From Eledone cirrhosa (Eukaryota): a stretch of 64,000 bases of DNA. The notes under the pieces are model-generated. The model had not been told where the DNA came from, did no database searches, and saw only the letters and a program-made list of their open reading frames with translations. Positions 3,653-33,230 of this stretch are shown piece after piece. The stretch is taken from assembly GCA_964016885.1 (NCBI GenBank), contig OZ024745.1, forward strand, positions 109,430,001 through 109,494,000, in the 5' to 3' direction. The position numbers and the translations under genes are program-made. Each line of letters begins with the position of its first letter. The first letter of the stretch is position 1.

Positions 3653-5660
<2,008 letters not shown>

Positions 5661-5801: not shown

Positions 5802-5927
5802 CCCACCACCACCACCACCACCACCACCAGCACGACCACCACCAGCACCACCACCACCAGCACCACCACCACCGCCACCACCACCACCACCACCAACACC
5901 ACCACCACCACCACCACCACCACCACC

Positions 5928-5958
<31 letters not shown>

Positions 5959-6554
5959 GCACCAGCACCACCAGCACCACCACCACCACCACCACCAGCA
6001 CCACCACCACCAGCACCACCACCACCGCCACCACCACCACCACCACCAACACCACCAACACCACCACCACCACCACCAGCACCACCACCAGCACCACCAC
6101 TACCACCACCACCACTACCACCACCACCACCACCAGCACCACCACTACCACCACCACCACTACCACCACCACCACCACCACCACCACCACCACCACCAGC
6201 ACCACCACCAGCACCACCACTACCACCACCACCACCACCAGCACCACCACCACCAGCACCACCACCAGCACCACCAGCACCACCACCAGCACCACCACCA
6301 GCACCACCAGCACCAGCACCACCACCACCACCACCACCGCCACCACCAGCACCACCAGCACCACCACCACCACCACCACCACAAGCACCACCACCACCAC
6401 CACCACCAACGCCACCACCACCAGCACCACCACCACCACCACCATCACCACCACCACCACCACCACCACAAGCACCACCACCACCACCACCACCACCACC
6501 ACCAGCACCACCACCACCACCAGCACCACCACCAGCACCACCACCACCAACACC

Positions 6555-6585
<31 letters not shown>

Positions 6586-6599
6586 CCACCAGCACCACC

Positions 6600-6630
<31 letters not shown>

Positions 6631-6761
6631 CCACCACCACCACCACCACTACCACCACCACCACCACCACCACCACCACCAGCACCACCACCAGCACCAC
6701 CACCACCAACACCACCACCACCAACGCCACCACCACCAGCACCATCACCACCACCACCACC

Positions 6762-6792
<31 letters not shown>

Positions 6793-6923
6793 CCACCACC
6801 ACCAACGCCACCACCACCACCACCATCACCACCACCACCACCATCACCACCACCACCACCACCAGCACCACCACCACCACCAGCACCACCACCAGCACCA
6901 CCACCACCAACACCACCACCACC
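5802..6923. repeat. Imperfect (CAC)n trinucleotide array of about 1.1 kb
   Basis: ACC repeat with AGC/AAC/ACT variants; source of the poly-T/H/P/V ORFs. Confidence 0.97.
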
Positions 6924-7082
6924 ATAATTGTTATCTCTTGTTGCATTTCAAGGAAGTGCTTGGGCTTTAGCAGAGGCAAGGGTAGGGGCCGGGGCGTTTT
7001 GTTGGTTTCACATATGCAATAACTGTAAGCTTCTGTGAGTGTATGTATACTTGTGTGTGTGTTTGGGCTTGTCTGTGTGTGT

Positions 7083-7403: not shown

Positions 7404-8403
7404 AAGGGATAAGATGGGACCCACCCCTTTCTTTTTCTGAGATCAATTAGTCCAGCTGGGCAAGCACACTCCTCTTCTTACCAGAAGCAACAAATCTGTT
7501 TTCACTCTCAAGTCAGTTGTCCCCTAATCAACCACAATAACAATAACAATAACAACAACAACAAGCAAGCGAGCAGCAACAAATGACCTTTGATTTACTA
7601 AGAAGTTAGAAAGGTAAAACAGCCTTCTCAGAAGATAATATGAATAGGTTGTGAGTATTTATTTCAACCCCTACAGAATCAGAAAGAAGCCAGCTTGAAG
7701 ATCACCTAAATGAGAGAAGGGGGGGGGGGGGGGTGAGGAAGAGAGAGAGAGGAAGAAAGAGGAAGGAGGCAGAGACAGTAAAAAAGGAAGGGAAAAAAGT
7801 TTAGAAAGAAAGACAAAGACTAAATAGAAATATCTCAACTCCTTTATCTTATAAATATGTATATATGTTTATATATATATATATATATATATATAAGTAA
7901 TAGACAAAATTAAAAGATATTTAATTAAAAACATATTTGGTAAAATTATAAAGTAGTGGTTTTGATTATGTATTCGTTCTCGTAGTGGTACCTGGCATTG
8001 CCTGAGTGCTAAATATGTTTACAAACATTTTTGGGGGCTTAAATTAAATTACTAAACTTATAGCAACCCTATACATAATTATGTAGCTCTTTATATATAC
8101 ACTGATAAACAAACATACACTTACAGTCTGGAGTGTTGTACACACTTACACATTTACATACATGTGCTTCACAATGAGAGTCAGAAGTAAAAGTACACAC
8201 AGTCACATAAAAACATGTAATATATGTATATATGAATCTATCCACATATCTATATAGACATATATGCACAATATCCAATATCCAATCATGTAATGTGTAT
8301 ATATGAAATCATGCACACACATTCACAAACATAGAAAATCAGAGATGAAAAAGATAGTGAGCGTAAGTGCATGTGTGTGTAATACACACATGCACACACA
8401 CAC

Positions 8404-8849
<446 letters not shown>

Positions 8850-9106
8850 TAAAGAGAGATTGAATGAGTAAGAAGAAAGACAGTTTGACATCACAAATAT
8901 ATTTTAGAATATTTCTGAATATTTTAAAAGTCTTTGTAAGTTAGCACACTTCTTACACTTCTCAACCATCTGTGTATATCTTCTTTCTTCTACTCTCATT
9001 ATATTAGAACTTTAAATCTTTTTACATCTCTTTCCTTGAATCCTCCCTGTTGTATCCAAAGGTTCATCAGACGTGTAATGTCTTTCTTTGGGATTATTCT
9101 GGGATG

Positions 9107-9460
9107 GTGAAGGCGCATGGCTTAGTGCTTAGAGCATTATGCTTGCAATCGGAAGGTTGTGAATTCGATTCTCAGACCAGGTGATGTGTTGTGTCCTTGA
9201 GCAAGACACTTTATTTCACGTTGCTCCACTTTACTCAGCTGTAGAAATGAGTTGCGACGTCACTGGTATCAAGCTGTATCGGCCATAGCCTTTCCCTTGG
9301 ACATCATCAGTGGCATAGAGAGAAGAGGCTGGTATGTATGGGCAACTGCAGGTTTTCCACAAACAACTTTGCCCAGACTTGTGCCTCAGAGGGAAACTTT
9401 CTAGGTGCAAATCCCGTGGACATTCATGACCGAAGGGAATCTTTACCGTACCTTTACCTA
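9107..9460 (+). mobile_element. tRNA-headed SINE family B (head and core as in A, different tail ending in TTTACC repeats)
   Basis: A-box TGGCTTAGTGC, B-box-like AATTCGATTC, core CCTTGAGCAAGACACTTTATTTCAC; other copies at 51702-52030 and 61113-61380 (-). Confidence 0.85.
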
Positions 9461-11812: not shown

Positions 11813-11853
<41 letters not shown>

Positions 11854-12148
11854 TATAAGTATATATATATAAATATATGTATATATGTATATATATGTAT
11901 ATATGTATATATGTATATATATATGTATATATGTATATATATATGTATATATGTATATATATATGTATATATGTATGTATACATATATATATATATGTAT
12001 ATATGTGTATATATATGTATATATGTATGTATATATATATATATATGTATATATGTATATATATATATATGTATATATGTATGTATATATGTATATATAT
12101 ATGTATATATGTATATATATATGTATATGTATATATATATATAATATA

Positions 12149-12339
<191 letters not shown>

Positions 12340-12340
12340 G

Positions 12341-12444
<104 letters not shown>

Positions 12445-12470
12445 TGTATATACATATATGTATATATATG

Positions 12471-12546
<76 letters not shown>

Positions 12547-12631
12547 TGTATATACATATATGTATATATATGTATATATAAATATATGTATATATATATG
12601 TATATATGTATATATATAAATATATATATAC

Positions 12632-12671
<40 letters not shown>

Positions 12672-13663
12672 TTATACACATCTATGCACACACACACATG
12701 TATATATATATATTTATATATATATATAAATATATATACACTTACACACACACATACATATACACGCGCACATGTATTTAATTGTAAATATTGACACATA
12801 CACAGATATAATTCTCATACATACATATATCCATACATTCACATACATAAACACACACATACACACATACACACTTAATAAACACTCACAGCTGTATACA
12901 TGCACACTTCTGAACTAGGTGTACATGCATGCATGCATGCAAACAGATAAAATAAAATATGCTGAGCAGGGCTGATGACATATTACATTGTCTTGTCTTT
13001 GGGTGAAAGAAGAAGGCAAAGCACTTGGAAGATGGCAGACATTAGAAAAATTAGATTGTCTGTGACTATTCATGGCAAAAGGATTACAGAAATAGATTAA
13101 AAATAAACAAATAAAATAAAGTGAAAACACAAAAAAATATATGAAAAAAAAACAAATAAAATAAAGGGAAAAACAAAAACATATAAAATAAAATTAAACA
13201 AATAAAATAAAGTGAAAAACAAAAAAAATAAAAATAAAATATAAATAAACTAATAAATAAAGTGAAAAAATATATAAAATAAAAATAATAAAAAAAATGA
13301 GTTCGACGACAAGAACAACGACAACAACAACAACAATGATGGAAACTGCATCAATAACCACAACAGAAATGAAATATATAAAGCAAAAAAAAAAAAGTAC
13401 CAAAAAAGAAAAAGAAAACAAATTTTATGAATAAAAAAGTAAGAGTGATATAAAAAAAATAGGCAAAAAAAAAAGGAAAAGACATATTGTAGTTGGATTA
13501 AACATAAATTACTTAAGTGGTCGTCCAGAAAATGGCTGCGAGAAATAGATGAAAATGGTTTGGTCGTGAAATAACTTGCTAAGGAAATTGCTCTGTAGAA
13601 ATGGAGGGGCATTACTGACTTCTTTCTGCCAGGGCATATTTATATATGTGTTTGTGTATGTGC

Positions 13664-16593: not shown

Positions 16594-17366
16594 ACTCTGC
16601 ATTTCACAGTAAATGCTTTACCTCACATTATCTCACAAAATATCGAATCTATGAGATTTTGATATTTATTTTGATACCAATACCTTAACGTCAGTATGAG
16701 TGGCTGGTTATGGATGGGTTGTCAGTATGAGTGGCTGGTTATGGATGAGAGAATTCTGGCCAGATATGGCTGGTTTAAATGCTAAAGAGTTGAACAACAT
16801 CAAAAACAACTTTCCTTATATCCTCAAAATGGTATTGGTTATATGCCAAAAGAAAGGATGGTCACTACTAGAATACATTTGATCAAAAGTCTCTCCTATC
16901 TGAATTGTTGAGGCTGGGGCTCAACAACAACAGAGACTTCCCTTAAGTGCACCAAATGGTATTGCTAAACCTTTTTGATATGAAATTGTTTGAAACCACT
17001 CCTGGTTCTGTGATACAAAGCTCCTTATTTTAAAGTATTTATTCTTATCTAAAAAAATGTTCCCATCATAATTTTATGTAAGAATCTTTATGTTCCAAAC
17101 ATCAGCTTAATTATGAGGAAGTTAATTATATTACTAAAATCCCTTGAAATAGGAACCACTAGATGTTATGTCACAGTGTATCCTAATATCAATAAATTTA
17201 TATAATTTTGTTTTAAATGACACATTATTATTTGATAGTCATTGGGAACTAATTACTTTTCATATCAAAATACTGAAAGATATTACTCCACTGCCCACAT
17301 AATTTACACAATTATAATAATTTTTCAAAACTCCTTTCCCACTTAAAAAAAAAAATTACTACTACT

Positions 17367-18076
17367 ACTGGCAGTGCTACCGAGGAGCTTTGCCAGTTTG
17401 GGATAAACTCTACAGGCATGGAAGTGCCATCAGCCGGGCATGTTCGAGATGCGCGCAGGGCGACAAAACCGTCCTGCATGCACTCGTCCAGTGTCTGAGC
17501 ATTACTGACTTGTGGGTTTATGTCGAACACCTGCTGTCGCGTGTAGAACGGATCTGACTATCAGCTGAGTCCATCGTGAGGATTGCCCCGCGCCCTTCCT
17601 TTAGCCTGGAAGAGCAGGCAGTTTTTATCTGTCTGGTGGCCATGGCGAAAGAGATAGTATGGTGGACACGTCTGAAAGGGTTGAAGACGAGCACTTACCT
17701 CTTCAGTGATGCCCTGATTAACTTTTTCAAATTTCATTTGAAAAGGAAAATCAGGGTAGAGAGGGAAGTGCTCTCTTCCCAGCATTTTGTTGAAAGATGG
17801 GTGAGAGAAGCAATTATGGCCCGAGTGAATGGACCTACTCTGAGTATATGCCTGTAAATTGAAGGTGGAAAACTGGGAGAGGGCACTTGCCCTAGTGGTC
17901 AGGGTCACCGTGGCTTTTTTTTTAATGGGCGTTCTCCACGATGGCTCTCGGAAGTCTCCCCCCTATTGGGGAATTTTTCATTGTTCTTTTTTTGTTACAT
18001 CCTCTGTTTTTTTGTTTTTTTCCTGTACTGTCCTTAATGTCTACTTTATGTAAACCCTTGTGGTTAATAAAGAAAG
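17367..18076 (+). mobile_element. L1/Tx1-clade LINE 3' fragment (zf-RVT CCHC knuckle, ORF2 end, 3' UTR)
   Basis: Reads WQCYRGALPVWDKLYRHGSAISRACSRCAQGDKTVLHALVQC, continues into ORF 17576-17857; T-rich UTR ending TGTGGTTAATAAAGAAA. Confidence 0.8.
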
Positions 18077-19641: not shown

Positions 19642-20095
19642 AGCAACAAGGGTGTCTTCTTGACGACACTCATTTGTCACAAGATTGCATAGTACAGGTC
19701 CAGCACGCTAGGCCTTCAAGAGAATACACACACTCATGCACACACACACACATATATATATATATTTTGTTTACATTGGATAGTTTACCTAATAGATAGA
19801 TGCAGTCAATCTGATTTCCAGATCTTGATGCAATAAGCGAAAGCACTCAACGTTATGTGTATCTTCCATCAGGTATGTCATATCTCATGATTGGTGCAGG
19901 AATGGAGTTAAATACTTCAATAAACATACAGGAAGGCTGAATTCCAATATCTTCCTTTAATGTTGTACAATTACATAATACATATTTCTATGAACAGCTT
20001 ACATCAAGAACAAGCCGGGTCCACGATTGTAAGCTCAATGCACTTACCACTAAGTCATGTGCCTTCATATATATATTATATATATCATTTTTATT

Positions 20096-20350
20096 TCATC
20101 ATTTTATGTCCGCTTTTCCATGCTTGCAAGGGTGGGACGGGAACTGATTCTGGCTTGATTTCTACAGCTGGATGCCCTTCCTAACACCAACCTCATTTAC
20201 AGTGAGTGCTGGGTGCTTTTTTGCCGTGGCACCTCCACGACCACTTTGTAGTGGAATGATAGGGACCCCAGTCCTATCATCTCATTTCTATGGCTGAGTA
20301 AACTGGAGCAATGTGAAATAAAGTGTCTTGCTCAAGGAAACAACACATCA
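20096..20350 (-). mobile_element. SINE family A, head truncated
   Basis: Reverse complement of the adjacent copy at 20379-20718. Confidence 0.9.
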
Positions 20351-20378
20351 TATATATATACATCATATATATATATAT

Positions 20379-20715
20379 GGAGGCACATGGCTTAGTGTTT
20401 AGAGCATTGGCCTTGCAATCGAAAGGTTGTGAGTTCAATTCTCAGACCGGGTGATGTGTTGTTTCCTTGAGCAAGACACTTTATTTCAAATTGCTCCAAT
20501 TTACTCAGCTGTAGAAATGAGATGATAGAGAATGGGGTGCCTATCATTCCACTACAAAGTGGTCGTGGAGGTGCCACGGAAAAAAACACCCAGCACTCAC
20601 TGTAAATGAAGGTGGTGTTAGGAAGGGCATCCAGCTGTAGAAATCAAGCCAGAATCAGTTCCCGTCCCACCCTTGCAAGCAGGGAAAAGTGGACGTAAAA
20701 TGATGATGATGATGA

Positions 20716-20718
<3 letters not shown>
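20379..20718 (+). mobile_element. SINE family A, full length (tRNA head, core, RTE-type tail, (GAT)n)
   Basis: A-box TGGCTTAGTG, B-box GAGTTCAATTC; tail GGTGTTAGGAAGGGCATCCAGCTGTAGAAA...GGACGTAAAA(TGA)n shared with the RTE 3' end at 32760-32913. Confidence 0.9.
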
Positions 20719-20752
<34 letters not shown>

Positions 20753-20886
20753 CAATGAGTTATTTAATTTGTTGATTATTCAACAAATTTAGTTTATAAC
20801 AGATTAGAAGTACTCAACAGTTTTTCTTCTGGAGTATAATATCAATGATATTAAATAAATGGAAACTATCTTTATAAAACCATATT

Positions 20887-20947
20887 TATTTTATTATATA
20901 TATTTCAAGGGTACCAAAGTTTTGGTACGCGCTCATCAGATAAAATA
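20887..20947 (-). ncRNA. Minimal type-I hammerhead ribozyme motif
   Basis: TATTTTAT-CTGATGA-GCGCGTACCAAAACTTTGGTACCCTT-GAAA-T-ATAT-A-TA^-ATAAAATA; 8-bp stem I. Confidence 0.8.
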
Positions 20948-21063
20948 CAAAAGTTGGTTTACAGATAGTGACATATTCAGACAAGAACTTAATGTTGTAT
21001 TAAATAGAACTCACAACATTAAGTTCTTGTCTGAATATGTCACTATCTGTAAACCAACTTTTG

Positions 21064-21124
21064 TATTTTATCTGATGAGAGCGTACCAAAATGTTGGTAC
21101 CTTTGAAATATATATAATATAATA
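21064..21124 (+). ncRNA. Minimal type-I hammerhead ribozyme motif
   Basis: TATTTTAT-CTGATGA-GAGCGTACCAA-AATG-TTGGTACCTTT-GAAA-T-ATAT-A-TA^-ATATAATA; predicted cut after 21116. Confidence 0.8.
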
Positions 21125-21167
21125 AATATGGTTTTATAAAGATAGTTTCCATTTATTGATATTATTG

Positions 21168-21207
<40 letters not shown>

Positions 21208-21306
21208 TCCAAAAAGTTAAGACCCTCTTCCTGCTATTTCAAGCGTTAACCTAATATATTCCTTTCATATACTGTACCGATTGTGTTGTTATTTCTGTTT
21301 ACCTTT

Positions 21307-21338
<32 letters not shown>

Positions 21339-21399
21339 CGCGCGTGTGTGTGTGTGTGTGTTTATGTGTGTGTGTATTTACATATATATATATATAATA

Positions 21400-21603
21400 A
21401 AGTGGTCATGAAGGAGACCTCAGCCCACACTGTAAAAATGGCTGGTGTTAGGAAGGGCATCCAGGTGTAGAAAACCTGCCAGAAACAGTTCTGTACGAAC
21501 GAGACATGGTCACATGACCAATCTTGCCTCAAGTGGGACAAACCCGTCCAATACATACTAGCATAGAAGATGGACGTTAAACGATGATGATGATGATGAT
21601 GAT
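21400..21603 (+). mobile_element. RTE-type 3' tail fragment
   Basis: GGTGTTAGGAAGGGCATCCAG...TCTTGCCTCAAGTGGGA...GGACGTTAAACG(ATG)n, matching 32740-32913. Confidence 0.8.
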
Positions 21604-22141
21604 TATATAAGTATATGCACATACATGTATGAACTTCCAAACACATTCACATATGTGTATAAATATATCACATGGTAGTTGTTAGTGGAGGGCAGTCTAC
21701 AATATACAACTGTTTCTGCCAGGTGTACAAAGCTCAGCATTACGAAATATGGAGATGTTTACCTAAATAAGATATTTTAGAGTATTCGATCTGAAAGAGA
21801 ATGAAAAATAAAACAAAAGAAAAGATTGTAAAAAAGCAGTTTATAAACATAATGACAGTTTTATGAGATAAACTAACTCTACTAATAAGGTTAAACTGAA
21901 AGGAAACTACATAAAGGAAAGAAAAAAAACGAACAGATAAGACAAAATTGAGATTATAATTTTACAACAGAACTGAAAGATAATGAAAAAAAAAAAGGAA
22001 AGTGAACAGACGAAACAAAAAACGCCATGATAATCTTACAGAATTAGCTAATTTACAGATAAAATGGTATCTAACGGATTTTATTAATGTAGGTAGCTTT
22101 ACTAAAGTCCACCAGAGAAAATTAAATGTATTTAATGTGAT

Positions 22142-22191
<50 letters not shown>

Positions 22192-22406
22192 GTATGGGGT
22201 TAACTGAATAAGGATGTGCAGATCACATTATGCTCTGTCGGTTGTGAAACAGATAAAAAGAAGCGCTCAACGACCTGCATAAATGGTACGAATGGCCGCC
22301 GATTTTTTATATATATATATAAGGAAGGAATTGTGGTAAGGAACCAGATGGACCATAACGAACCAGAGTACTCAATACTTAGGGTAGTAGAGTGGAAAAT
22401 AGGAAA

Positions 22407-22513
22407 AAGTATGACCCCGACGGCAGAGCTCAAGCTGTTTCGACGGCTATTTCTTGACTAAATTAGAATTTTTAGCCTGGTGAATAAATAGCCGAACTTG
22501 TCAAGGGGTACTT
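22407..22513 (-). ncRNA. Type-I hammerhead motif in the Penelope pLTR with U3/A8 variant core
   Basis: AAGTA-CCCC-TTGACAA-G..CGGCTATTT..AAATAGCCG.C-GAAAC..GTC^-GGGG-TCA-TACTT. Confidence 0.7.
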
Positions 22514-23281
22514 CCTTATATGGGAAGATTGTAGTTGTCAAGAGGATTGGTTAAAATTTGTTGTAAACACAAATAAGTCTATCATGGCATTTGGTGGGAG
22601 GTAGGGGTGGCTGAACTTGCCTGTAGAACAATAGGGGAGTGAGTGGAGCCGGTCAAGCGTTGAAAGTGATATGTATACAGCAGATTCTAAGGATAGTGTA
22701 TGAAATGGAGGAGGGAGGTTATAGAATAGGTAATTCGAATGAGAGTAGGAGACAATAAAAGATAATAGAAAGAAATAAAAAAAATATATAAAATTAGAAA
22801 GTGAGAAATGAAGCTATCTTACAATTACAGGTTAATAAGTTGAGAATAGAAAAACATTGTAGAAATGGAGTAGTAACAAAAATGATACAAAATTAAAGGG
22901 GTCTAACACATCTGCTATAAATAGTTAGTAAAACGTATTCGGCCAATTCTATCTTAAAATTACAGGGGTGGGGGAACTGATGCTACATAGGCCCGATGAG
23001 CTGCATCGAGGTACGCGAAAGGGGAAAAGCAGACGAGGAAGAAAATAGGGGGTGGAAGGGAGTGATAGGATGAGACAGGGGGAAGAAGAAGACATAGAGG
23101 AAAAGAAAAGAGATACATCTACCTATGTAAGCTGGGATTTCCCTAACTTATTCGGCAAGTGTGTGTGTGTGGGGGGGGATATCAGCCCTTGTCTATCCAC
23201 CCGGGTCGTTATGGAGTTTGAGGGCGAGGTAAGTCCTACGCAATCTGTGTTTGCATACGGTTACCAGTTCGTCTTTCTTGT

Positions 23282-24546
23282 TTAGGAGTTGGTCCTTCGA
23301 AAACAACATTGTAATGTTTCCTCCGAGCATAAGTTACACGGACGGCGTCCTCCTGTGTAAGAGTTAGCTCTGGACAGTAAGCTCCAAGTGAGATTGTAGG
23401 TTATATTATTATCTTGGAGGGCCCAGATGTAGCCCGAAAGTGTAGTGACATGTCGCCGGACCGGGTTTCGGAAAGTATGTCGGTGATGGTAGAGCCGGGT
23501 CTTGAAGTCACAAGCGGTTAATCCTATATAAGCTTTGTTGGAGGTGTCCGTCCTCACGTTGCACTGGTAGATCACGTTACGTTCTCAGAATTTGTTGTTG
23601 AGGGGGCACGTAGATCTATCAAGGCAGTTACACCTCCTGGTCGGCTCTCCACTGATGTCTAGGTTGTTTCTTCCATAAGGGTTGAGTTTTTTGTTGTTTG
23701 AGGAGACGATGTTTTGTGCGAAGTTAGGTGTGGTGCTGTAGGAGAGTTAGATGGTGTTTTTGTAGATTCTGTTATGGTAGCGGTGTTGTAGTGGGAAGTG
23801 TTTTTCGAGGAGCCTAAAGAAGATTTTTCCGATAGGTGTTGGCACCTCGGCATTATGGGGAGGATTGAACCACGTTACGTTGCGTGAGCGGCGGTGTCGC
23901 CTGCTGGTTCCGTTAAGGGAAGCTGGATAAAAGGAAGTCACTCCGCTTGAGGGCTTGGTTGTAATGAGGCGCATATTCGTCGAATATCTGCTCATTAGCG
24001 GACAAACGAGATATGCGGAGGGAGATGTTTTTAACCAGGTTATTCGTGATGTTTCTAGGATGGTTAGAGCGGCGGTGGATGTAATGCAGGTTGTCGTTTG
24101 GTTTCCTGTATGTGTAGTACAGATCATTTTCGAGGTTAAGGGTAACGTCCAGGAAATTGACTCGGGTTAGGGACGTTTGTGAGGTGATTTTAAATCCCCA
24201 GTCCCGGAAGAAGTTGTTTACGGACCCGGTCTGTACTGCTGGGGTTCTACCCTTTGAGGATGAGGAGCCCATCATCCCGGTACAATCCACATTTCGGTGA
24301 GTTTAAATAGTAGGAATAATCCTATAAGATCTGTGACCTCGGCCGAATCCATCGGGCCCATACTGACGTCGAAGGGGGAGTCTGGAGCTCTCTTTATCTA
24401 CTTGGAGTTGTCGAAAAGTAGGACTGTCTTCCTGGCGTAGAGAATGATATTTCTTTCCTGGTCAGTGATGGGTGTGAGTGTTTCGGCAAAGACCAAGGCG
24501 GCCGTAAGGAACGGTAAGGTAATAGATGCATAGTAACTCTCTATGT
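23282..24546 (-). pseudogene. Disrupted PLE RT/GIY-YIG ORF with several frameshifts and stops
   Basis: Spread over ORF-track pieces 24398-24580, 23913-24290, 23747-24127 and 23282-23575. Confidence 0.9.
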
Positions 24547-24550
24547 GCAT

Positions 24551-24960
24551 AACACTCCCTGAAACATAAGTAATACACATGTAAAATTTGAAAAAGGTCG
24601 GTTGGGTTCTTCTCGAGTTTTAGGGATTCAAACTCACAGACACACACAGACACACAGACAGACATCCTCAGAGAAGTGACCTAGTGGGGACAGTCAGACA
24701 TACAGACAGATATTATAAGGGCGCGACGTTATATGTATGTATCTATCTAAAAAGAGAAAGACTAAGAATTATAGAGAGAGATCGCTAAATCACCTAATGC
24801 GGTCCCTAGGGAATTGAAAATTTAAAATTGTTTTTGCACAGAAAACACTCCCTGAAACATAAGTATTACATGTGTAAAGTTTGAAAACAGTCGGTTGGGT
24901 TCTTTTCGAGTTTTAGGGATTCAAACTCACACACACACAGACAGACATCCTCAGTTTTAT
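24551..24960. repeat. Duplicated unit of about 115 bp (24551-24670 / 24843-24955), possibly the end of a non-autonomous Helitron-like element
   Basis: AACACTCCCTGAAACATAAG...TCAAACTCACA(CAGA)nCATCCTCAG occurs twice, the second followed by TTTTATATATA; a similar end at about 25640-25730. Confidence 0.5.
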
Positions 24961-24963
24961 ATA

Positions 24964-25024
<61 letters not shown>

Positions 25025-25475
25025 TATATATATGAATGAAAAAATGGCGTGCTGTGTTGTTGCAAGTGTGATACATATGAATGGAAATAGAGTGAGTAAT
25101 GGGCCAGTACATCATCAGTGATCTTCTGACTATCATTGGTATTAACGAGAGAGAAAATGCATATAATTCAAAATCTGCAGTTATATTTACATAAAATTTA
25201 TCTTAAATCTTCTAATGTATGCAATGCATTGCATAAATATTTATTATTTAATATTTACACACACACATATAAACACACTGACACATACATGCTCATGAAC
25301 ATACATGCATCATCCTTTAATACCCATTATCGCTGCTACAAAATATACTCACCAGAATGTCAGAATGTATGTAAGATGCAGGCCCTGGGCCCATCTGAGA
25401 GGTCTGTGGCAGTGATTATGTGGTAGCCTTACTAGCAGGGAAAGCAAATGCGAAATGATAACACACACACACATA

Positions 25476-25547
<72 letters not shown>

Positions 25548-25871
25548 CGGTTGAGTCACAATTTCAGTTGAATGAGGATTATCTCCTGTCCCTTAAAACA
25601 ATATTGGTCCAAGTTTGAGGACAACCTATAGTTAAGTCTAAGGACCTTACATGACAAGTTTGAACATGATTGGTTTACTGGTTTTTGAGTGCATTGGTAA
25701 CAAACAAACAGAAAAGCAATTTTATATATATATATATATATATATATGTAGGAGGTGAGTTTTATTGTAGTACAATAAAGCAATGCAGATATCGGATAAG
25801 AAGCACTCTACAGTTTGTAGGACTGGAGTATACATAATATAAGATCAAAAGATGGTTAAAGGAGTTCCATG

Positions 25872-25942
25872 TATTTTATTATGCGCATTTCAAAAACAAA
25901 CATCATCATGCAATAATATTTGTGTTTTCATCAGATAAAACA
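25872..25942 (-). ncRNA. Minimal type-I hammerhead ribozyme motif
   Basis: Exact reverse complement of 26062-26132. Confidence 0.85.
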
Positions 25943-26061
25943 GGAGAACATGATATGAAGGCCAAAAAAACACTTGTGGATAGTGCAGTTGATATGTTGA
26001 TATGTTGATTTAAAACTGCACTATCCACAAGTGTTTTTTTGGCCTTCATATCATGTTCTCC

Positions 26062-26132
26062 TGTTTTATCTGATGAAAACACAAATATTATTGCATGATG
26101 ATGTTTGTTTTTGAAATGCGCATAATAAAATA
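26062..26132 (+). ncRNA. Minimal type-I hammerhead ribozyme motif with palindromic GCGC loop 3
   Basis: TGTTTTAT-CTGATGA-AAACACAAATAT..ATGTTTGTTTTT-GAAA-T-GCGC-A-TA^-ATAAAATA; predicted cut after 26124. Confidence 0.85.
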
Positions 26133-26500
26133 CATGGAACTCCTTTAACCATCTTTTGATCTTATATTATATATATATATATATATATGTATGTATGATC
26201 CCATAACTTCTGATAGAGTCGTAGGGGTTTCTTGGTCATTTTAAGCCTGGCAGAGCCCACTCCTCTCCAGGCCTGAGTACAGCAGATTTCTTCCAGGGAA
26301 AGATAGAAAGTGAGAGAGAGGAAATGAGAAAGAGATATAGAGGAAGAATCGACCCCAGTATTAGACTGGTACTTTTTTTATCAACCTTGAAGGGTTGAAA
26401 GGCGAAGTTGATGTCAGTGGGACTTGAACTCAGCGACCAGCGAGCTGGAATGAATACCATAAAGTATTCTATCTGACATTCTAATGACCCTGCCAATTTA

Positions 26501-26630
26501 CCGTCGAAACAGCTTGAGCTCTGCCGTCGGGGTAAAACAAACATTTTCCTATTACCCACTTTACTACCCTAAGTATTGAGTACTCTGGTGCGTTATGGTC
26601 CACCTGGTTCTTTACCACATTTCCTTCGTT
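26501..26630 (+). mobile_element. Solo 3' piece of the Neptune pLTR (3' half of the hammerhead only)
   Basis: CCGTCGAAACAGCTTGAGCTCTGCCGTCGGGG...GTATTGAGTACTCTGG...TTCCTTCGT(TA)n, reverse complement of 22321-22446. Confidence 0.85.
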
Positions 26631-26631
26631 A

Positions 26632-26677
<46 letters not shown>

Positions 26678-26864
26678 GAAGTTATATTTAATTTGTTGGG
26701 ATACAACAAGCAAATATTTTTATAACTGATATAAAGCACTCAACACATTTTTGGAGTAAAAATACAATATATTAACAAATGGAAACTATCCGGGAGCTTC
26801 CAACCGACATGGTCGCATTCTTTAAGGGTATGTCAATATTTGTTTATAAAACTGATCTATATTA

Positions 26865-26929
26865 TATTTTATCTGATGAAAGCGCACCATAATTTGCTTT
26901 GGTGTCCTTGAAATATGTATAATGAAATA
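26865..26929 (+). ncRNA. Minimal type-I hammerhead ribozyme motif
   Basis: TATTTTAT-CTGATGA-AAGCGCACCA..TGGTGTCCTT-GAAA-T-ATGT-A-TA^-ATGAAATA. Confidence 0.8.
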
Positions 26930-26967
26930 AATTTGGTTTTATAAATAAAGTTTCCATTTGTTACTAT

Positions 26968-27007
<40 letters not shown>

Positions 27008-27134
27008 AAAGTTCTATTTAAATTGTTGGGATACAACAAGCAAATATTTTTATAACTGATATAAAGCACTCAACAAATATTTGGAGTAAAAATACGATAT
27101 TAACAAATGGAAACTATATTTATAAAACCATATT

Positions 27135-27199
27135 TATTTGATTATACATATTTCAAGGACACCAAGTTAAATTATGGTGTGCTTTCATCAGATAAAATA
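27135..27199 (-). ncRNA. Minimal type-I hammerhead ribozyme motif
   Basis: TATTTTAT-CTGATGA-AAGCACACCA..TGGTGTCCTT-GAAA-T-ATGT-A-TA^-ATCAAATA. Confidence 0.75.
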
Positions 27200-27264
27200 T
27201 AGATCAGTTTTATAAATAAATATTGACATACCCTTAAAGAATGCAACCATTACTGTTGGAAGTA

Positions 27265-27295
<31 letters not shown>

Positions 27296-27476
27296 CCCTG
27301 TCAATTCACCTTATATATATATACATATAGGAAAAGAGTCAGGACCTTGATGGCTGAGCTCTGGCCATTTTGACAGCTAGAGAGAGAGACAGCTAGAGAG
27401 AGAGAGATAGATAGAGAGAGAGAGAGACTGGGAGTTACCAGCTTAGTACTCGATACAATATATCTATATAGATACA

Positions 27477-27523
<47 letters not shown>

Positions 27524-28009
27524 CGTGTATGCGTGTGTGTGTATGTGTGTATGTGTGTGTGTGTGTGTGCACATTTGGATGCACTCACACAAAATATTTT
27601 AAAAAAAGAAAGTAAGGAAAAGAAAAGAGAAAAAAAAAAAAACGTCCCATCCTTGCAAGCAGGGAAAAGCGGACGTAAAATGATGATGATGATGATGATG
27701 ATGATTAGGGTGGGAGAAAGAACTCTTCATATATATATCACCACAGAAATTTGCTAAAGGTGGCTCTTGCTTGTACTCACGACAGCAGGGGAACTCTACA
27801 ATTCAATGCCCAGAGAGAGAGAGAGAGAGAGAGAGGGGTAGGGAGGGATCAAGTCAAGTGAACATATAGTAAGCTTGAACCCAATAACTAAAGCTGTTGA
27901 ATCACAATGTTGGGGTGTACTGATGGTGATATGTAATGATAACAGTGTTTGATGACAGGTGTGGTGTTGATGGTGGAGTGGAGATAGCATGGTTCCATGA
28001 CAGGAATCG

Positions 28010-28476
28010 TGGCGGCAGTGGTGGTGGTGGTGGCAGTGGTGGTGGTGGTGATTGTGGTGGTGGTGGTGGTGGCAGTGGTGATTGTGGTGGTGGTGGTGGC
28101 AGTGGTGATTGTGGTGGTGGTGGTGGCAGTGGTGATTGTGGTGGTGGCAGTGGTGATTGTGGTGGTGGCAGTGGTGGTGGTGGTGGTGGTGGTGGTGTGA
28201 TGATGGCAATGATAATGATGATGATGGTGGTGCTGGTGCTGGGGATGGTGGTGGTGGGGCTGATGATGATGATGGTGGTGGTGGTGGTGGTGGTGGTGGT
28301 GGTGGTGATGATGGTGGTGGGGATGATGATAATGATGATGATAGGGGTGGTGATGATGATGCTGGTGGTGGTGGGGGTGGGGGGTGGGGGGCTGATGATG
28401 ACTATGATGATGATGGTAATGATGTTGATGATGAGGAGGAATATGTGTAGGCAGAGAATATAGTGGTTGCCATATC

Positions 28477-28514
<38 letters not shown>

Positions 28515-28960
28515 AAGTAGTAGTACTAGTAGTAGTAGTAGTAGTAGTTGTAGTACTAGTAGTTGTAGCAGCAGCAGTAGTAGTAATAATAGTAGTAGTA
28601 GTAGTAATAGAAGTCGTAGTAGTAGTAGTAGTAGTAGCAGCAGCAGTAGCAGTAGTAGTAGTAGTAGCTGTAATAGTAGTAATGGTAGTAGTAGTAGTAG
28701 TAGCAGCAGTAGTAGTAGTAGTAATAGTAGTAGTAGTACTAGTAGTAGTAGTAGTAGTTGTAGTACTAGTAGTTGTAGTAGTAGCAGCAGCAGTAGTAGT
28801 AATAATAGTAGTAGTAGTAGTAGTAATAGAAGTCGTAGTAGTAGTAGTAGTAGCAGCAGCAGTAGCAGTAGTAGTAGTAGTAGTAGCTGTAATAGTAGTA
28901 ATGGTAGTAGTAGTAGTAGTAGTAGTAGTAATAGTAGTAGCATTAGCAGCAGTAGTGGTG

Positions 28961-28993
<33 letters not shown>

Positions 28994-29035
28994 TTGGTAG
29001 TAGTAGTAGTAGTGGTGGTGGTGGCAGCTGTAGTA
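28010..29035. repeat. Compound (GGT)n/(GAT)n/(TAG)n tract with an internal duplication of about 210 bp
   Basis: Seen directly; GTACTAG...GAAGTCGTAG...GCTGTAATAG landmarks occur twice. Confidence 0.9.
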
Positions 29036-29514
29036 GCTAATGGGAATGTTTATCAAAGATGAAAGCCTGCAACCCTAGTCTGGATTGTTTAACTAAATTA
29101 CTAAATCTGCGATAATTACCATTGAATGTCTTATAATTAGTGGGGGGGGGTAGGAGTGGAGAGGATTGGTGGGAGTTGAGGATAGACAGGAGGTGGGCAA
29201 GAACACACACCTATACACACACACATACACCTATACACATACACACACACACACACACCTATACACACACACACCCCTATATACACACATACACCCCTAT
29301 ACACACACACACCTACACACACACACACACACAAATGGGGAGGCGTGGGAGAATATGAGGGAGTATAAAGAGGAATAAAAAAGACATAGAGAAAGAAAAG
29401 AAGTAAGAGAGTTATATGTAGAGAAGGAAAAGATATATAGAGAAGAATTGATATATAGAGAAGAGATATAGAAAGGGTAATATATATATATATATATATG
29501 ATGATATATATATA

Positions 29515-29852
29515 TCATCATCATCATCATCATCATTTTACGTCCGCTTTCCCTGCTTGCAAGGGTGGGACGGGAACTGATTCTGGCTTGATTTCTACAG
29601 CTGGATGCCCTTCCTAACACCAACCTCATTTACAGTGAGTGCTGGGTGCTTTTTTTCCGTGGCACCTCCACGACCACTTTGCAGTGGAATGATAGGGACC
29701 CCAGTCCCTATCATCTCATTTCTACAGCTGAGTAAACTGGAGAATGTGAAATAAAGTGTCTTGCTCAAGGAAACAACACATCACCCAGTCTGAGAATTGA
29801 ACTCACAATCTTTCGATTGCAAGGCCAATGCTCTAACCACTAAGCCATGTCA
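29515..29852 (-). mobile_element. SINE family A, full length
   Basis: Near-identical reverse complement of 45420-45745. Confidence 0.9.
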
Positions 29853-30040
29853 CCCGTTCCATATAACCATGTCCATTACAAGCTGAGGATCTGCTAAGGT
29901 GAAACAATTGTTCTCTGTATGGTGAACTAACTGTTGTGTAACCACTTCTACCTAACTCGTCCCATGGACTGAGTGCTCTACCACTACGGATATTACCTTC
30001 CAGTGTTCTACCACTATATATATATATATATATATATATA

Positions 30041-30946
30041 CGAGGTGGGTCAGAAAAGTTCCAGGACTGATGTCACAAAAGATTTATTTCAAACCCAAAC
30101 TTCACACTAAGAGTTTTCTCCTTCAAAGTAATCCCCCTGGAGTATGTAACTGTAATCTTAGCTCTCTGCAGCAATCAAACTTTTTTCTTCATAATTTTAT
30201 ATACATGTCTTCTGTTTCAGGTCATCAAGCAATGAAGACAGAGCAACGAACAAACTTGAAAACTCTGTCAGAAGCACTGGGATTGCTGCAGCAAGTGTAT
30301 GGAGATGAGACGATGTCACGCTCATGTGTTTTTGAGTGGTGCAAGAGGTTTAAAGAAGGACACGAGGACGTGGAAGATGACCCCAGGAGTGGAAGGCCCT
30401 CAACAACTAGGACTGAGGTCAACGTTGAGCACGTCAGGCAGATGGTGCGTAGCGATCGTCAGCTGACTGTTCGACTGGTGGCAAATGAGCTGGGCATGAA
30501 TCGGGACAGCGTCTGGAAGATTCTCACTGAAGATTTGGATATGCGGAAAGTCTGCGCGAAGATGGTGCCAAAACTGCTGAACAATGACCAGAAGGGTTGA
30601 CGCATGCAAGTGTGCCAGGACATCCTCGAGAGTCTTGAAACCGAACCAGACTTGCTAGGGACAGTCATCACCGGTGATGAGTCATGGATCTTCGAGTATG
30701 ACCTGGAAGGGACCCGTTTTGAAGACGTGGACGACATAAAAAAGGCCATGATGACGGAACTGCGGAGGATCCTGGAAGAATCCTTCCAGGAGTGCATGCA
30801 AGCGTGGCAGAAAAGGATGGAAAAATGCATTAGACTCCAGGGGATTACTTTGAAGGAGAAAACTATTAGTGTGAAGTTTGGGTTTGAAACAAATCTTTTG
30901 TGACATCAGTCCTGGCACTTTTCTGCCCCCCCCCCCCCCCCCCCCG
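30041..30946 (+). mobile_element. Mariner element, internally deleted, TIRs of about 100 bp, TA TSD
   Basis: TA|CGAGG...CG|TA; protein [55 protein letters not shown] joined directly to [13 protein letters not shown]. Confidence 0.93.
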
Positions 30947-31007
30947 TATATATATATACTTGCTATTAAGTTAGACATGATCTGGGCCTTAAAGTTAAAT
31001 ATAAATA

Positions 31008-31038
<31 letters not shown>

Positions 31039-31042
31039 TATG

Positions 31043-31130
<88 letters not shown>

Positions 31131-31136
31131 TACATA

Positions 31137-31170
<34 letters not shown>

Positions 31171-31223
31171 CATATATATACATACATACATATACATACA
31201 TACATATATATACATACATACAT

Positions 31224-31324
<101 letters not shown>

Positions 31325-31767
31325 GAGGATGGGGTGATTAAGAGGAGTTATAATTAAAGAAGTAAACATGAAAAAATGAAGAATGAAGAGAAGAAAAGAA
31401 AGAAATACTTTTTGAAATAAGGGGATATAAAACAAATGAACAGCGAGAGGGGGTGGGGGGGGGCAGACAGAGAGAGGGTGAGGGAGAGAGAAAAGGAGCT
31501 AGAGAGAGAAAGACAGAGAGACAGAGATAAATAAAAATAAGGAGAAAGATGGAGTTAAGAGGAGAGAGATATATAAAGTGAAATATAAAGAAAAAGATCT
31601 GGAATAAGAAGTGGGACGATGGATATATATGAAGTTGGAGAAACTGAGGGGAGGAAAGTAAGTCAAATCAAACAGGACAGACAAATAAAAAACACAAAAA
31701 AAAACAAAATGAGGAGAGAGAGATAATACATACATATTAATATATATGTGTATATATATATATATAT

Positions 31768-32913
31768 GAGTGTAGGAAAGGCGTAGGTAGAAATTCCATT
31801 TTGTGTCCCAAATGCAAAGTTTGGGTGCATAAAAGATGTAGTGGGATCACAGGTAAGCTAACTAAGAACATAGATTTTACATGTGGCCGGTGCTCTGGGG
31901 ATATAAGTAGCAGCAAGTGCCCACAAAATACTAGCTCTTTCAACTGCGCAGAGGGTTCTATAGAAATAGTGGACAGCTTCCGTTACCTGGGTGACAAAAT
32001 CAGCAGTGGGGGAGGGTGCTCTGAAAGTACAGTAGCTAGAGTCAGAACTGGGTGGAAAAAGTTCAGAGAGCTTATACCACTATTAGCCGCTAAAGGGTTC
32101 TCCCTAAAAATAAAAGGCAGGCTGTACGATGCCTGCATACGAACAGCAATGTTGCATGGCAGTGAGACCTGGGCATTGTGTGCAGAGGATATACGCAGAC
32201 TAGAGAGAAACGAAGCTTGCATGCTCCGCTGGATGTGTAATAGTAATATACGTGAACGACAAAGCATAAACGAACTAAGGAAAAAATTAGAAATAAGAGG
32301 GATCAGATGTTGTTTACTAGAGAGAAGGCTACGTTGGTATGGTCACGTGATGCGCATGAAGGATGATAGCTGTATAAGAAAGTGCAGGGCAATAAAGATA
32401 GACGGTAGCCACGGAATAGGCAGACCCAGAAAAACCTGGGACGAGCTGATAAACACCGACCTCACACACTTACACCTCACCAAGACAATGTCACTGGACC
32501 GAGACCTTTGGCGGTACTCAGTAATAGAGAAGACCCGCCTTGCCAGTAGGCATCTCTAACAAAATACACCCCGTCCCACCACCACCAACCCCACCCCATC
32601 CACACCGCCCGTTCTATGTAAAGTTATGTTGGTGCCGCGCCATCCAGGCCGAAACAAATGAGATCGTGTAGGTGTCACGACAAAAAAACACACAGTCCAC
32701 GCTGTAATGTGGCCGTGTAGGCAACACGGTAAAAACCTCCCAGACCCACACTGTAAATGTGGTTGGTGTTAGGAAGGGCATCCAACTGTAGAAAACCTGC
32801 CAGACAGTCCTATGCGAGCAAGAAAATCACTCTTGCCTCAAGTGGGACTACCCCCGTCCAAACCCATGCAAGCGTGGAACACGGACGTTAAACGTTGATG
32901 ATGATGATGATGA
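31768..32913 (+). mobile_element. RTE LINE, 5'-truncated; open ORF2 C-terminus with PHD-like Cys cluster and complete 3' UTR ending in (GAT)n
   Basis: CRKGVGRNSILCPKCKVWVHKRCSG..CGRC, VDSFRYLGD, AMLHGSETW, RRLRWYGHVMR, GRPRKTW; stop at 32559. Confidence 0.93.
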
Positions 32914-32930
32914 TATATATATATATATAT

Positions 32931-33140
32931 AACGAAGGAAATGTGATAAGGAACCAGATGGACCATAACGCACCAAAGTACTCAATACTTAGGGTAGTAG
33001 AGTGGGTAATAGGAACGAGTAGGACCCGACAGCTGAGCTCAAGCCGTTTTGACGGCTAATTCTGGACTAAAATATATATATTAGTCCAGAATTAGCCGTC
33101 GAAACGGCTGGAGCTCAGCCGTCGGGGATTTACCCGTTCC
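32931..33140. mobile_element. Inverted pair of Neptune pLTR 3' pieces (- 32931-33070; + 33081-33140)
   Basis: Both begin at TTAGTCCAGAATTAGCCGTC; the + copy has perfect stem III GAAACGGCT-GGAGCTC-AGCCGTC^GGGG. Confidence 0.85.

Positions 33141-33230
<90 letters not shown>

Follow-up and report, generated by a model that had tools for sequence, protein, structure and literature searches.

A short Penelope-type insertion from Eledone cirrhosa, apparently recent, with two head-to-head copies of its ribozyme-bearing end in a TA repeat

Introduction

Inverted, 5′-truncated copies with a tail at one end belong to the standard anatomy of Penelope-type elements (PLEs), as set out in the parts of PMC8557442 devoted to their structure. 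In its passages on the Hydra clade, the same source describes insertion in (TA)n, lists an octopus member (Hydra-1_Obim) and, in section 11, names a CxCX5C linker and CxxC and CxH motifs flanking conserved E and N residues as clade motifs. The clade is also marked by RWK and DKT motifs and by the absence of CCHH. How tandem and inverted PLE ends arise is still described as an open problem in PMC8557442. In the in vitro work of PMC11167929, a PLE from anole cleaved both strands of its target, extended each of them and initiated at two sites, one at either limit of the tail. The anole protein is predicted there to dimerize, and ribozyme cleavage is reported to be dispensable.

Our literature search, with most subscription journals outside its coverage, returned no paper that treats twin priming by PLEs or octopus-like pLTR hairpins such as those described here. 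In L1 elements, twin priming reportedly occurs when the second target end primes internally on the RNA, which produces an inverted 5′ segment.

Here we describe an element, designated A, in a 64,000-nucleotide stretch of Eledone cirrhosa DNA that we refer to as the window. Element A is a short Penelope-type insertion in a TA repeat. It appears to be recent and carries its ribozyme-bearing end as two copies that meet head to head.

Results

The palindrome and its flanks

Element A (25748..26170, main sense strand minus) is a whole PLE insertion without an ORF and consists of a tail, a left arm, a spacer and an inverted arm. The original prediction of a 157-bp perfect palindrome was borne out. 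The left arm (25834..25990, sense on the minus strand) and the right arm (26014..26170, inverted and tail-less, sense on the plus strand) each span 157 bp and are exact reverse complements, with 157 matches, 0 mismatches and 0 gaps. The spacer between them (25991..26013) has the 23 nt and the 8-bp tandem duplication described for it, and opens with two copies of GATATGTT. Our initial inverted-repeat search of the whole window was dominated by microsatellites. With spacers limited to 100 nt or less, A is the longest perfect non-microsatellite inverted repeat in the window; the runner-up (67 bp) is the core of the element that begins at 20751.

The predicted asymmetry of the arms was also found. 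On the left side only, the element continues for 86 nt beyond the arm as a tail (25748..25833, minus strand), up to a (TA)12 tract that ends at 25747 (target tract 25723..25747). The right arm runs into (TA)n at 26170, and the right target tract (26171..26188) gives way to sequence that mirrors neither the left side nor the tail. The A tail contains a terminal hairpin (25761..25779, minus strand) with an 8-bp stem and a 3-nt loop. Copies B and D, described below, have a hairpin at the equivalent tail position with a sequence that differs from that of A. The motif GAGYRST lies 26 nt into the tail (25802..25808, minus strand) and is common to B, C, D and a second family, E.

Predicted hammerhead ribozymes

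Each arm of A contains a predicted minimal type I hammerhead. The one in the left arm spans 25872..25942 on the minus strand (core start 25934), with a predicted cut after AUA between 25880 and 25879; the one in the right arm spans 26062..26132 on the plus strand (core start 26070), with a predicted cut between 26124 and 26125. This cut lies 46 nt inside the end of the right arm and more than 100 nt from the center of the palindrome, and we rejected hammerhead cleavage as the cause of any boundary. A CUGAUGA...GAAA core is present on all six long arms of A–D, each with an AU-closed, palindromic or near-palindromic stem III of 8 nt, an AUA cleavage triplet (6/6 arms) and an A-U or G-U pair at the base of stem II. 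A had been said to carry the best-formed hammerhead pair. Its hammerheads are indeed the best formed among the six arms parsed, with a stem I of 8 bp, the longest stem II and the strongest stem III self-dimer (-10.5 kcal/mol, versus -2.2 to -3.2 for the other arms), but they lie on opposite strands and therefore cannot dimerize as a pair within one RNA.

Covariation supports the predicted fold. In an alignment of five arms, 95 of 100 cells were paired and 6 pairs had changed on both sides, a result reached by none of 500 shuffles; these are five related rows from three subfamilies, and the structure was drawn from the same sequences. Slid controls of the alignment were 39–53% paired. A type I hammerhead in the terminal repeat, a PLE trait, is thus present in A–D by its core, stems I–III and covariation, though Rfam models did not detect it. 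At the gathering threshold, Rfam reported no hammerhead in the window, its sole match being a SINE tRNA head. Allowing E-values up to 10 across 20000–28000 gave 43 matches that included no hammerhead family; we set these matches aside as mostly generic miRNA hairpin models, all under their own gathering scores. Unconstrained RNAfold of five hammerhead stretches gave z-scores from -0.75 to -1.91, so single-sequence stability provides no evidence.

Neighboring copies of the A–D family

A profile built from the arms had seven matches in the window, all within the four insertions A, B, C and D. None were in direct tandem, and the window contains no tandem of two or more units each with a hammerhead. 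Element B (20751..21167, minus strand) has the layout of A, with a 14-nt spacer (20999–21012). As had been noted for this locus, it shares the asymmetry of A and its arms are mismatched (152 matches, 7 mismatches and small indels). Three of the differences between the B arms are left-derived, three are right-derived and two are ambiguous, as expected of arms that were identical at the start and have decayed independently. Element C (26675..26971, minus strand) comprises a tail and ~30 nt on the minus strand, followed by an inverted, tail-less, full-length unit on the plus strand. Element D (27005..27263, minus strand) is a unit with a tail and without inversion. The starts of C and D are within one or two bases of each other. 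Over the unit, A is 56–57% identical to B and D, compared to ~50% for shuffled sequence, and B and D are 70% identical. No coding part or ORF is attached to A–D.

Family E and its coding remnant

Family E comprises three further insertions. E1 (22321..24500, minus strand, 5′ boundary approximate) is a broken Hydra-clade PLE, 5′-truncated within the reverse transcriptase (RT), that retains RT, thumb, CxCX5C linker, GIY-YIG endonuclease, a long 3′ UTR and a tail, and ends in (TA)n. Its frames contain the CxCX5C linker and a C-terminal endonuclease with CxxC and CxH around conserved E and N residues. An ORF combining telomerase-like RT and GIY-YIG, a further PLE trait, was seen in the window for family E only. 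Database support was slim. Pfam returned no match for three E1 pieces, and no homolog of the endonuclease piece was found among 28 candidates. The thumb piece had one homolog among 253 candidates (38% identity, unnamed), and its atlas cluster set includes PF26215. The 3′ UTR of E1 is unusually long (~0.8 kb); E1 also shows a hammerhead-like fold with a degenerate core and has no inverted arm at its 5′ end.

The 3′ end sequence of the ORF-bearing E1 recurs in E2 and E3. E2 (26501..26630, plus strand) is a short 3′ fragment with a tail and no inversion. E3 (32932..33143, minus strand) is a fragment with a head-to-head inversion, its tail on the left and a tail-less inverted arm on the right, and its center coincides with a natural apical hairpin of stem II in E1. 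Since E3 has the layout of A and the sequence of the E1 3′ end, the architecture is tied to a PLE ORF within the window, though A itself is not.

The window thus contains four inversions (A, B, C and E3) from two unrelated families, one of which is attached to a Hydra-clade ORF remnant. An origin of the palindrome in reverse transcription, by snap-back or template jump, had been proposed from A, and the recurrence of this layout, with the inverted arm ending at one element-relative site, supports it. All seven insertions have a 3′ end that abuts a TA run, the target expected for Hydra. They lie within 12.4 kb (20751–33143), and our searches found none elsewhere in the 64 kb. Six of the seven have their main arm on the minus strand, an orientation bias that is not significant (two-sided ~0.125, hand count).

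A fixed stop for the inverted arm

The end of the inverted arm falls 26 (A), 25 (B), 21 (C) and 25 (E3) nt before the GAGYRST motif, with the boundaries of B, C and E3 uncertain by a few bases. The corresponding tails are 86, 89, 87 and 76 nt long. In simulations, four stops fell within 6 nt in 34 of 400000 trials with uniform stops and in 242 of 400000 with TA-like stops only (about 1e-4 to 6e-4), figures that are optimistic in that the four stops and the motif were picked after seeing the data. The inverted arm of B passed through a 9-nt perfect TA run without stopping, which indicates that the stop is not simply the first microhomology. The right arm of A does abut (TA)n, as originally described, but its stop is a defined PLE boundary rather than a mere run into the repeat.

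Tails are present on 7/7 main arms and on 0/4 inverted arms (Fisher 0.003), which argues against two independent RNAs. All four inversions show the PLE trait of a 5′ pLTR, direct or inverted, and a single tail confined to one end.

Unit length

The 5′ ends of A–D lie 72–80 nt upstream of the ribozyme core, and the units measure 259–266 nt including spacers. This is within the size range of retrozyme monomers, which are non-coding and ~170–400 nt long. We compared tail-end sequence with the 5′ ends in six segments. It recurred in one of them, the right side of B (background fraction 0.0008), and the other five gave fractions of 0.05–0.95. Terminal redundancy was significant for B only and so does not establish a strict circular template; in A the resemblance is inexact despite perfect arms, which tells against one. 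Circular folds gave z-scores of -0.3, -2.4 and -1.3, which are not distinctive.

Surroundings

The window is AT-rich, with many microsatellites and SINEs and numerous remnants of LINEs or mariners, a repeat landscape that suggests an invertebrate and probably a cephalopod. A host-gene search covering 148 of 260 filtered frames returned only transposon domains and two weak PAP2_C matches on a tandem repeat. A head-to-head pair of a tRNA-derived SINE occupies 20096–20706, with 242 matches and 12 mismatches between the copies, a TA-rich spacer and a left copy without the tRNA head. The two arms share one variant that is missing from three other copies, and the pair could represent one event or two insertions. 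A second head-to-head SINE pair (8401–9254, ~400 bp apart, 76% alike) probably arose by independent insertions. Two copies of a short repeat that ends in a CA/CAGA microsatellite and then TA (24551–24656 and 24844–24947) are 91% identical over 106 nt.

Remnants of other transposons include a Mariner/Tc1-like element at 30044–30932, in which inverted repeats of ~100 bp (94%) enclose pieces of a transposase that include HTH domains, and a zf-RVT domain fragment of a LINE at 17321–17554 (E 6.7e-08). The 3′ part of another LINE (31741–32915), which we take to be RTE-like, has a 272-aa frame with a PHD-like zinc finger and ends in (ATG)n. This LINE is similar to the local SINE at the 3′ end, where it borders the TA tract that holds E3. 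At 63192–63680, a 112-bp unit derived from a SINE-like repeat body is repeated 4.4 times in tandem (98% matches). Very long uninterrupted microsatellite arrays (0.9–1.7 kb) at 3708–5405, 5803–6924, 11813–12738 and 52313–53274 suggest a long-read assembly.

Discussion

Identity and origin of A

Element A is very probably the non-coding 3′ end (pLTR) of an endonuclease-bearing PLE, probably one of the Hydra clade or mobilized by it, that entered (TA)n through a single integration as an inverted, head-to-head duplication. We observed the sequences, boundaries, covariation and recurrence directly, and infer the clade and the age of A. Since A lacks an ORF and shares only 56–57% identity with B and D, what connects it to Hydra is its target, its layout and short motifs. 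We would classify A as a Hydra-like PLE, short of a proven Hydra member.

Two primings on one RNA, followed by a template jump, could produce this structure. The PLE protein would nick both strands of (TA)n. One target end would prime reverse transcription at the distal start site, at the end of the tail. The other would use the same RNA but start 86 nt further upstream, at the proximal, TA-rich boundary of the unit. Each cDNA would reach the 5′ end of the RNA, with the first displacing the second; the first would then jump to the 3′ end of the second and copy it, and the imprecise joint would survive as the short spacer of 23 nt with its slipped 8-mer. The arms would be identical at birth, and would still be identical because the insertion is young. 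A single rule could cover the whole series: D, E1 and E2 would arise when no second priming occurs, C (with its ~30-nt overlap) by partial displacement, and A, B and E3 by full displacement. Strand displacement and end-to-end jumping are said to occur in R2 and L1. The activity of the anole PLE on both target strands, and its two start sites, speak for such a model. Since the two arms share a 5′ end point and a tail is present on just one of them, one RNA and one event are implied. Taken as a whole, the combination of a PLE 3′ end, an inverted duplication and this mechanism is probably the best explanation of the locus. One observation that could tell against it is C, which may have started as a complete palindrome and been shortened in the left arm afterwards.

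For the mechanism itself we tentatively favor two primings, by a slight preference over snap-back of the cDNA, which is also quite possible. In a snap-back, a cDNA primed at the tail end would fold back at its 3′ end and be extended as a hairpin. Bound protein or the endonuclease would arrest or nick the new strand at the TA-rich boundary, after which it would be joined to the other target end. Snap-back fits the shared 5′ point of both arms, to within 10–23 nt, in A, B and E3. The position of the E3 center on a natural hairpin suits such an intramolecular event at least equally well, though the same hairpin could also join two cDNAs. Others have read head-to-head junction palindromes as self-priming (PMC3846280), and the scheme in part of PMC8557442 ascribes the tail to endonuclease resolution. 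The anole PLE start site did not differ between the two strands in the in vitro assays described in part of PMC11167929, which counts against two-site priming. Snap-back, on the other hand, accounts for the fixed stop only with an additional step, and for C only with a subsequent deletion. The B spacer resembles tail-end sequence in the right-arm polarity only, the wrong one if the left arm was made first, but this objection is weak, as spacers can invert later (PMC8604942). Every enzymatic step in these accounts is one that we infer, and the sequence is compatible with two primings and with snap-back alike. Two independent, opposite insertions in one TA tract, or a MITE or foldback DNA transposon with terminal inverted repeats, are very improbable. 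(TA)n is evidently a hot target, with seven PLE insertions in 12.4 kb, and the E3 spacer is TA-like; the A and B spacers, however, are not TA, the two arms share one 5′ point, the tail is only ever on one side, un-inverted copies exist (D, E1 and E2), and family E continues into a PLE ORF.

The perfect arms of A most likely reflect its youth, which we place ahead of conversion. Finding 0 differences in 157 positions bounds the divergence of A below 1.9%, and at the divergence of B the chance of finding none would be 8.5e-4. The intact stems and tail hairpin of A also fit a young insertion. The arms had been considered either very recent or homogenized by arm-to-arm conversion; a recent insertion is the simplest reading, and conversion receives weak, indirect support from other palindromes. 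An old insertion with arms homogenized later, by template switching at a quasi-palindrome, is unlikely for A. Arm homogenization is documented in yeast in part of PMC8604942, and the inner parts of the older palindromes are cleaner, with the first difference at 68/159 in B, 21/66 in E3 and 38/249 in the SINE pair. The conservative combined p-value, with junction bases dropped and neighboring differences merged, is 0.024 for B and E3 and 0.020 for all three (raw 0.003–0.012), while the single tests are each weak (0.044, 0.083 and 0.151). Some conversion from the center outward may have occurred in the older palindromes, but B, C, E3 and the SINE pair all retain differences, and the hammerhead stems and unpaired tail hairpin of A are undamaged. 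A fold-back library chimera or an assembly or polishing artefact is highly unlikely. The perfect identity of the arms and the microsatellite on both flanks would suit one, and structures of this kind are described in part of PMC8557442 as troubling short-read assemblies. The mirror of A, however, stops at an element-defined site common to three other loci with diverged arms, its right flank does not mirror the tail, and the only N run (200 N, 2382–2581) is far away.

We also considered, as a rather doubtful reading, that A–D are non-autonomous, hammerhead-bearing units of ~250–260 nt that resemble retrozyme monomers, not random 5′ truncations. A PLE protein of the Hydra type would have copied each unit exactly once, from an RNA that was tandem or circular. 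This is suggested by the clustering of the A–D 5′ ends and by the repeat of tail-end sequence at the B center. The clustering could be accounted for equally well by a strong reverse-transcription stop inside a longer 3′ UTR. If the retrozyme-like reading were true, the series D, C, A/B would document in vivo how both target ends prime on one RNA, at two start sites set by the protein, a step that in vitro PLE work has not settled. A fixed unit length, if it holds, would connect the dispersed monomers with the proposed retrozyme cycle.

Consequences

The product of A is probably inert as a ribozyme, since folding models predict that read-through RNA zips into a 157-bp duplex and buries the sole sense hammerhead. 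The duplex of a whole-A transcript is predicted at -278 or -272 kcal/mol, depending on direction, versus -22 for one arm. If the locus were transcribed, dsRNA would follow, and the hairpins could seed small RNAs against their own family. Given the 23-nt spacer, formation of a cruciform is doubtful by analogy with yeast, in which a 9-bp spacer lowered breaks by 80% and longer spacers showed no fork arrest, according to part of PMC8053094.

A itself is one more dead transposon end. Its worth is as a specimen, with four inversions in two families, one precise stop and the tail always on the opposite arm. A genome-wide comparison of such inversions could separate twin priming from snap-back without bench work.

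Comparison with known systems

We compared A and its neighbors to inversions and ribozyme-bearing units described elsewhere. L1 twin-priming inversions reportedly have the geometry seen in copy C. They are said usually to lack duplication of the inverted part into a long palindrome and to use a variable internal priming site, in contrast to the fixed site here.

Non-LTR retrozymes, as described in parts of PMC7229834 and bioRxiv 10.64898/2026.07.22.740005, resemble A–D in their ~250-nt non-coding unit, low GC, type I hammerhead and presumed mobilization by PLEs. The copies here differ as dispersed monomers or inverted dimers in (TA)n, with no tandem array in the window and a circular fold that is not consistently stable. 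The predicted hammerheads of A–D fit the minimal, dimer-forming metazoan PLE hammerheads covered in part of PMC4209133 in their intact core, long stem II, short, dimer-suited palindromic stem III and covariation between families. They depart from these at the base of stem II (A-U/G-U versus a conserved G10.1-C11.1 pair) and in stem I (8 bp versus 4–5).

Hydra-clade PLEs, including Penelope-13_HM with its inverted 5′ copy, share with A the (TA)n target, a hammerhead near the 3′ end and a GAGYRST-like motif (PMC8557442, in part). Family E adds the Hydra protein motifs, together with the same inversion as A. Judged by eye, four of the six novel Hydra consensi published there have a GAGYRST-like motif downstream of the hammerhead. 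The Hydra-1_Ajap consensus in the supplement extends 46 nt beyond the ribozyme cut, and its start lies 21 nt ahead of the equivalent motif; by eye, this matches the arm/tail boundary of A (46 and 25 nt). The stop of the inverted arm is thus the known tail-less PLE end, a true unit end, with the tail serving as leader of the next unit. The cleavage triplets differ: GUH appears in 26/26 Hydra rows of the table in PMC8557442, versus AUA in A–D, which also lack the published Hydra hammerhead pattern (AC...GU-H stem III), a regularity of that table rather than a stated definition. A search of the supplement with the four motif strings of A–D gave no match for two of them, and for the remaining two a match outside the Hydra file; no coding sequence is attached to A–D.

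The closest match in layout is to the inverted pLTRs of endonuclease-bearing PLEs, such as Pen2a from Adineta vaga (PMC3846280; scheme in the Fig. 2 legend of PMC8557442). As in A, these consist of a head-to-head, 5′-truncated copy with a junction palindrome, a tail on one repeat only, an AT-rich target and a pLTR of ~200–250 nt. The Eledone copies differ in having no ORF between the repeats, in their longer tails (76–89 nt versus 30–40 nt) and in a target-site duplication that is unreadable in (TA)n. The architecture of A is already known for PLEs, of which A is an additional example, and several of its neighboring copies show unusually clearly where the second copy stops.
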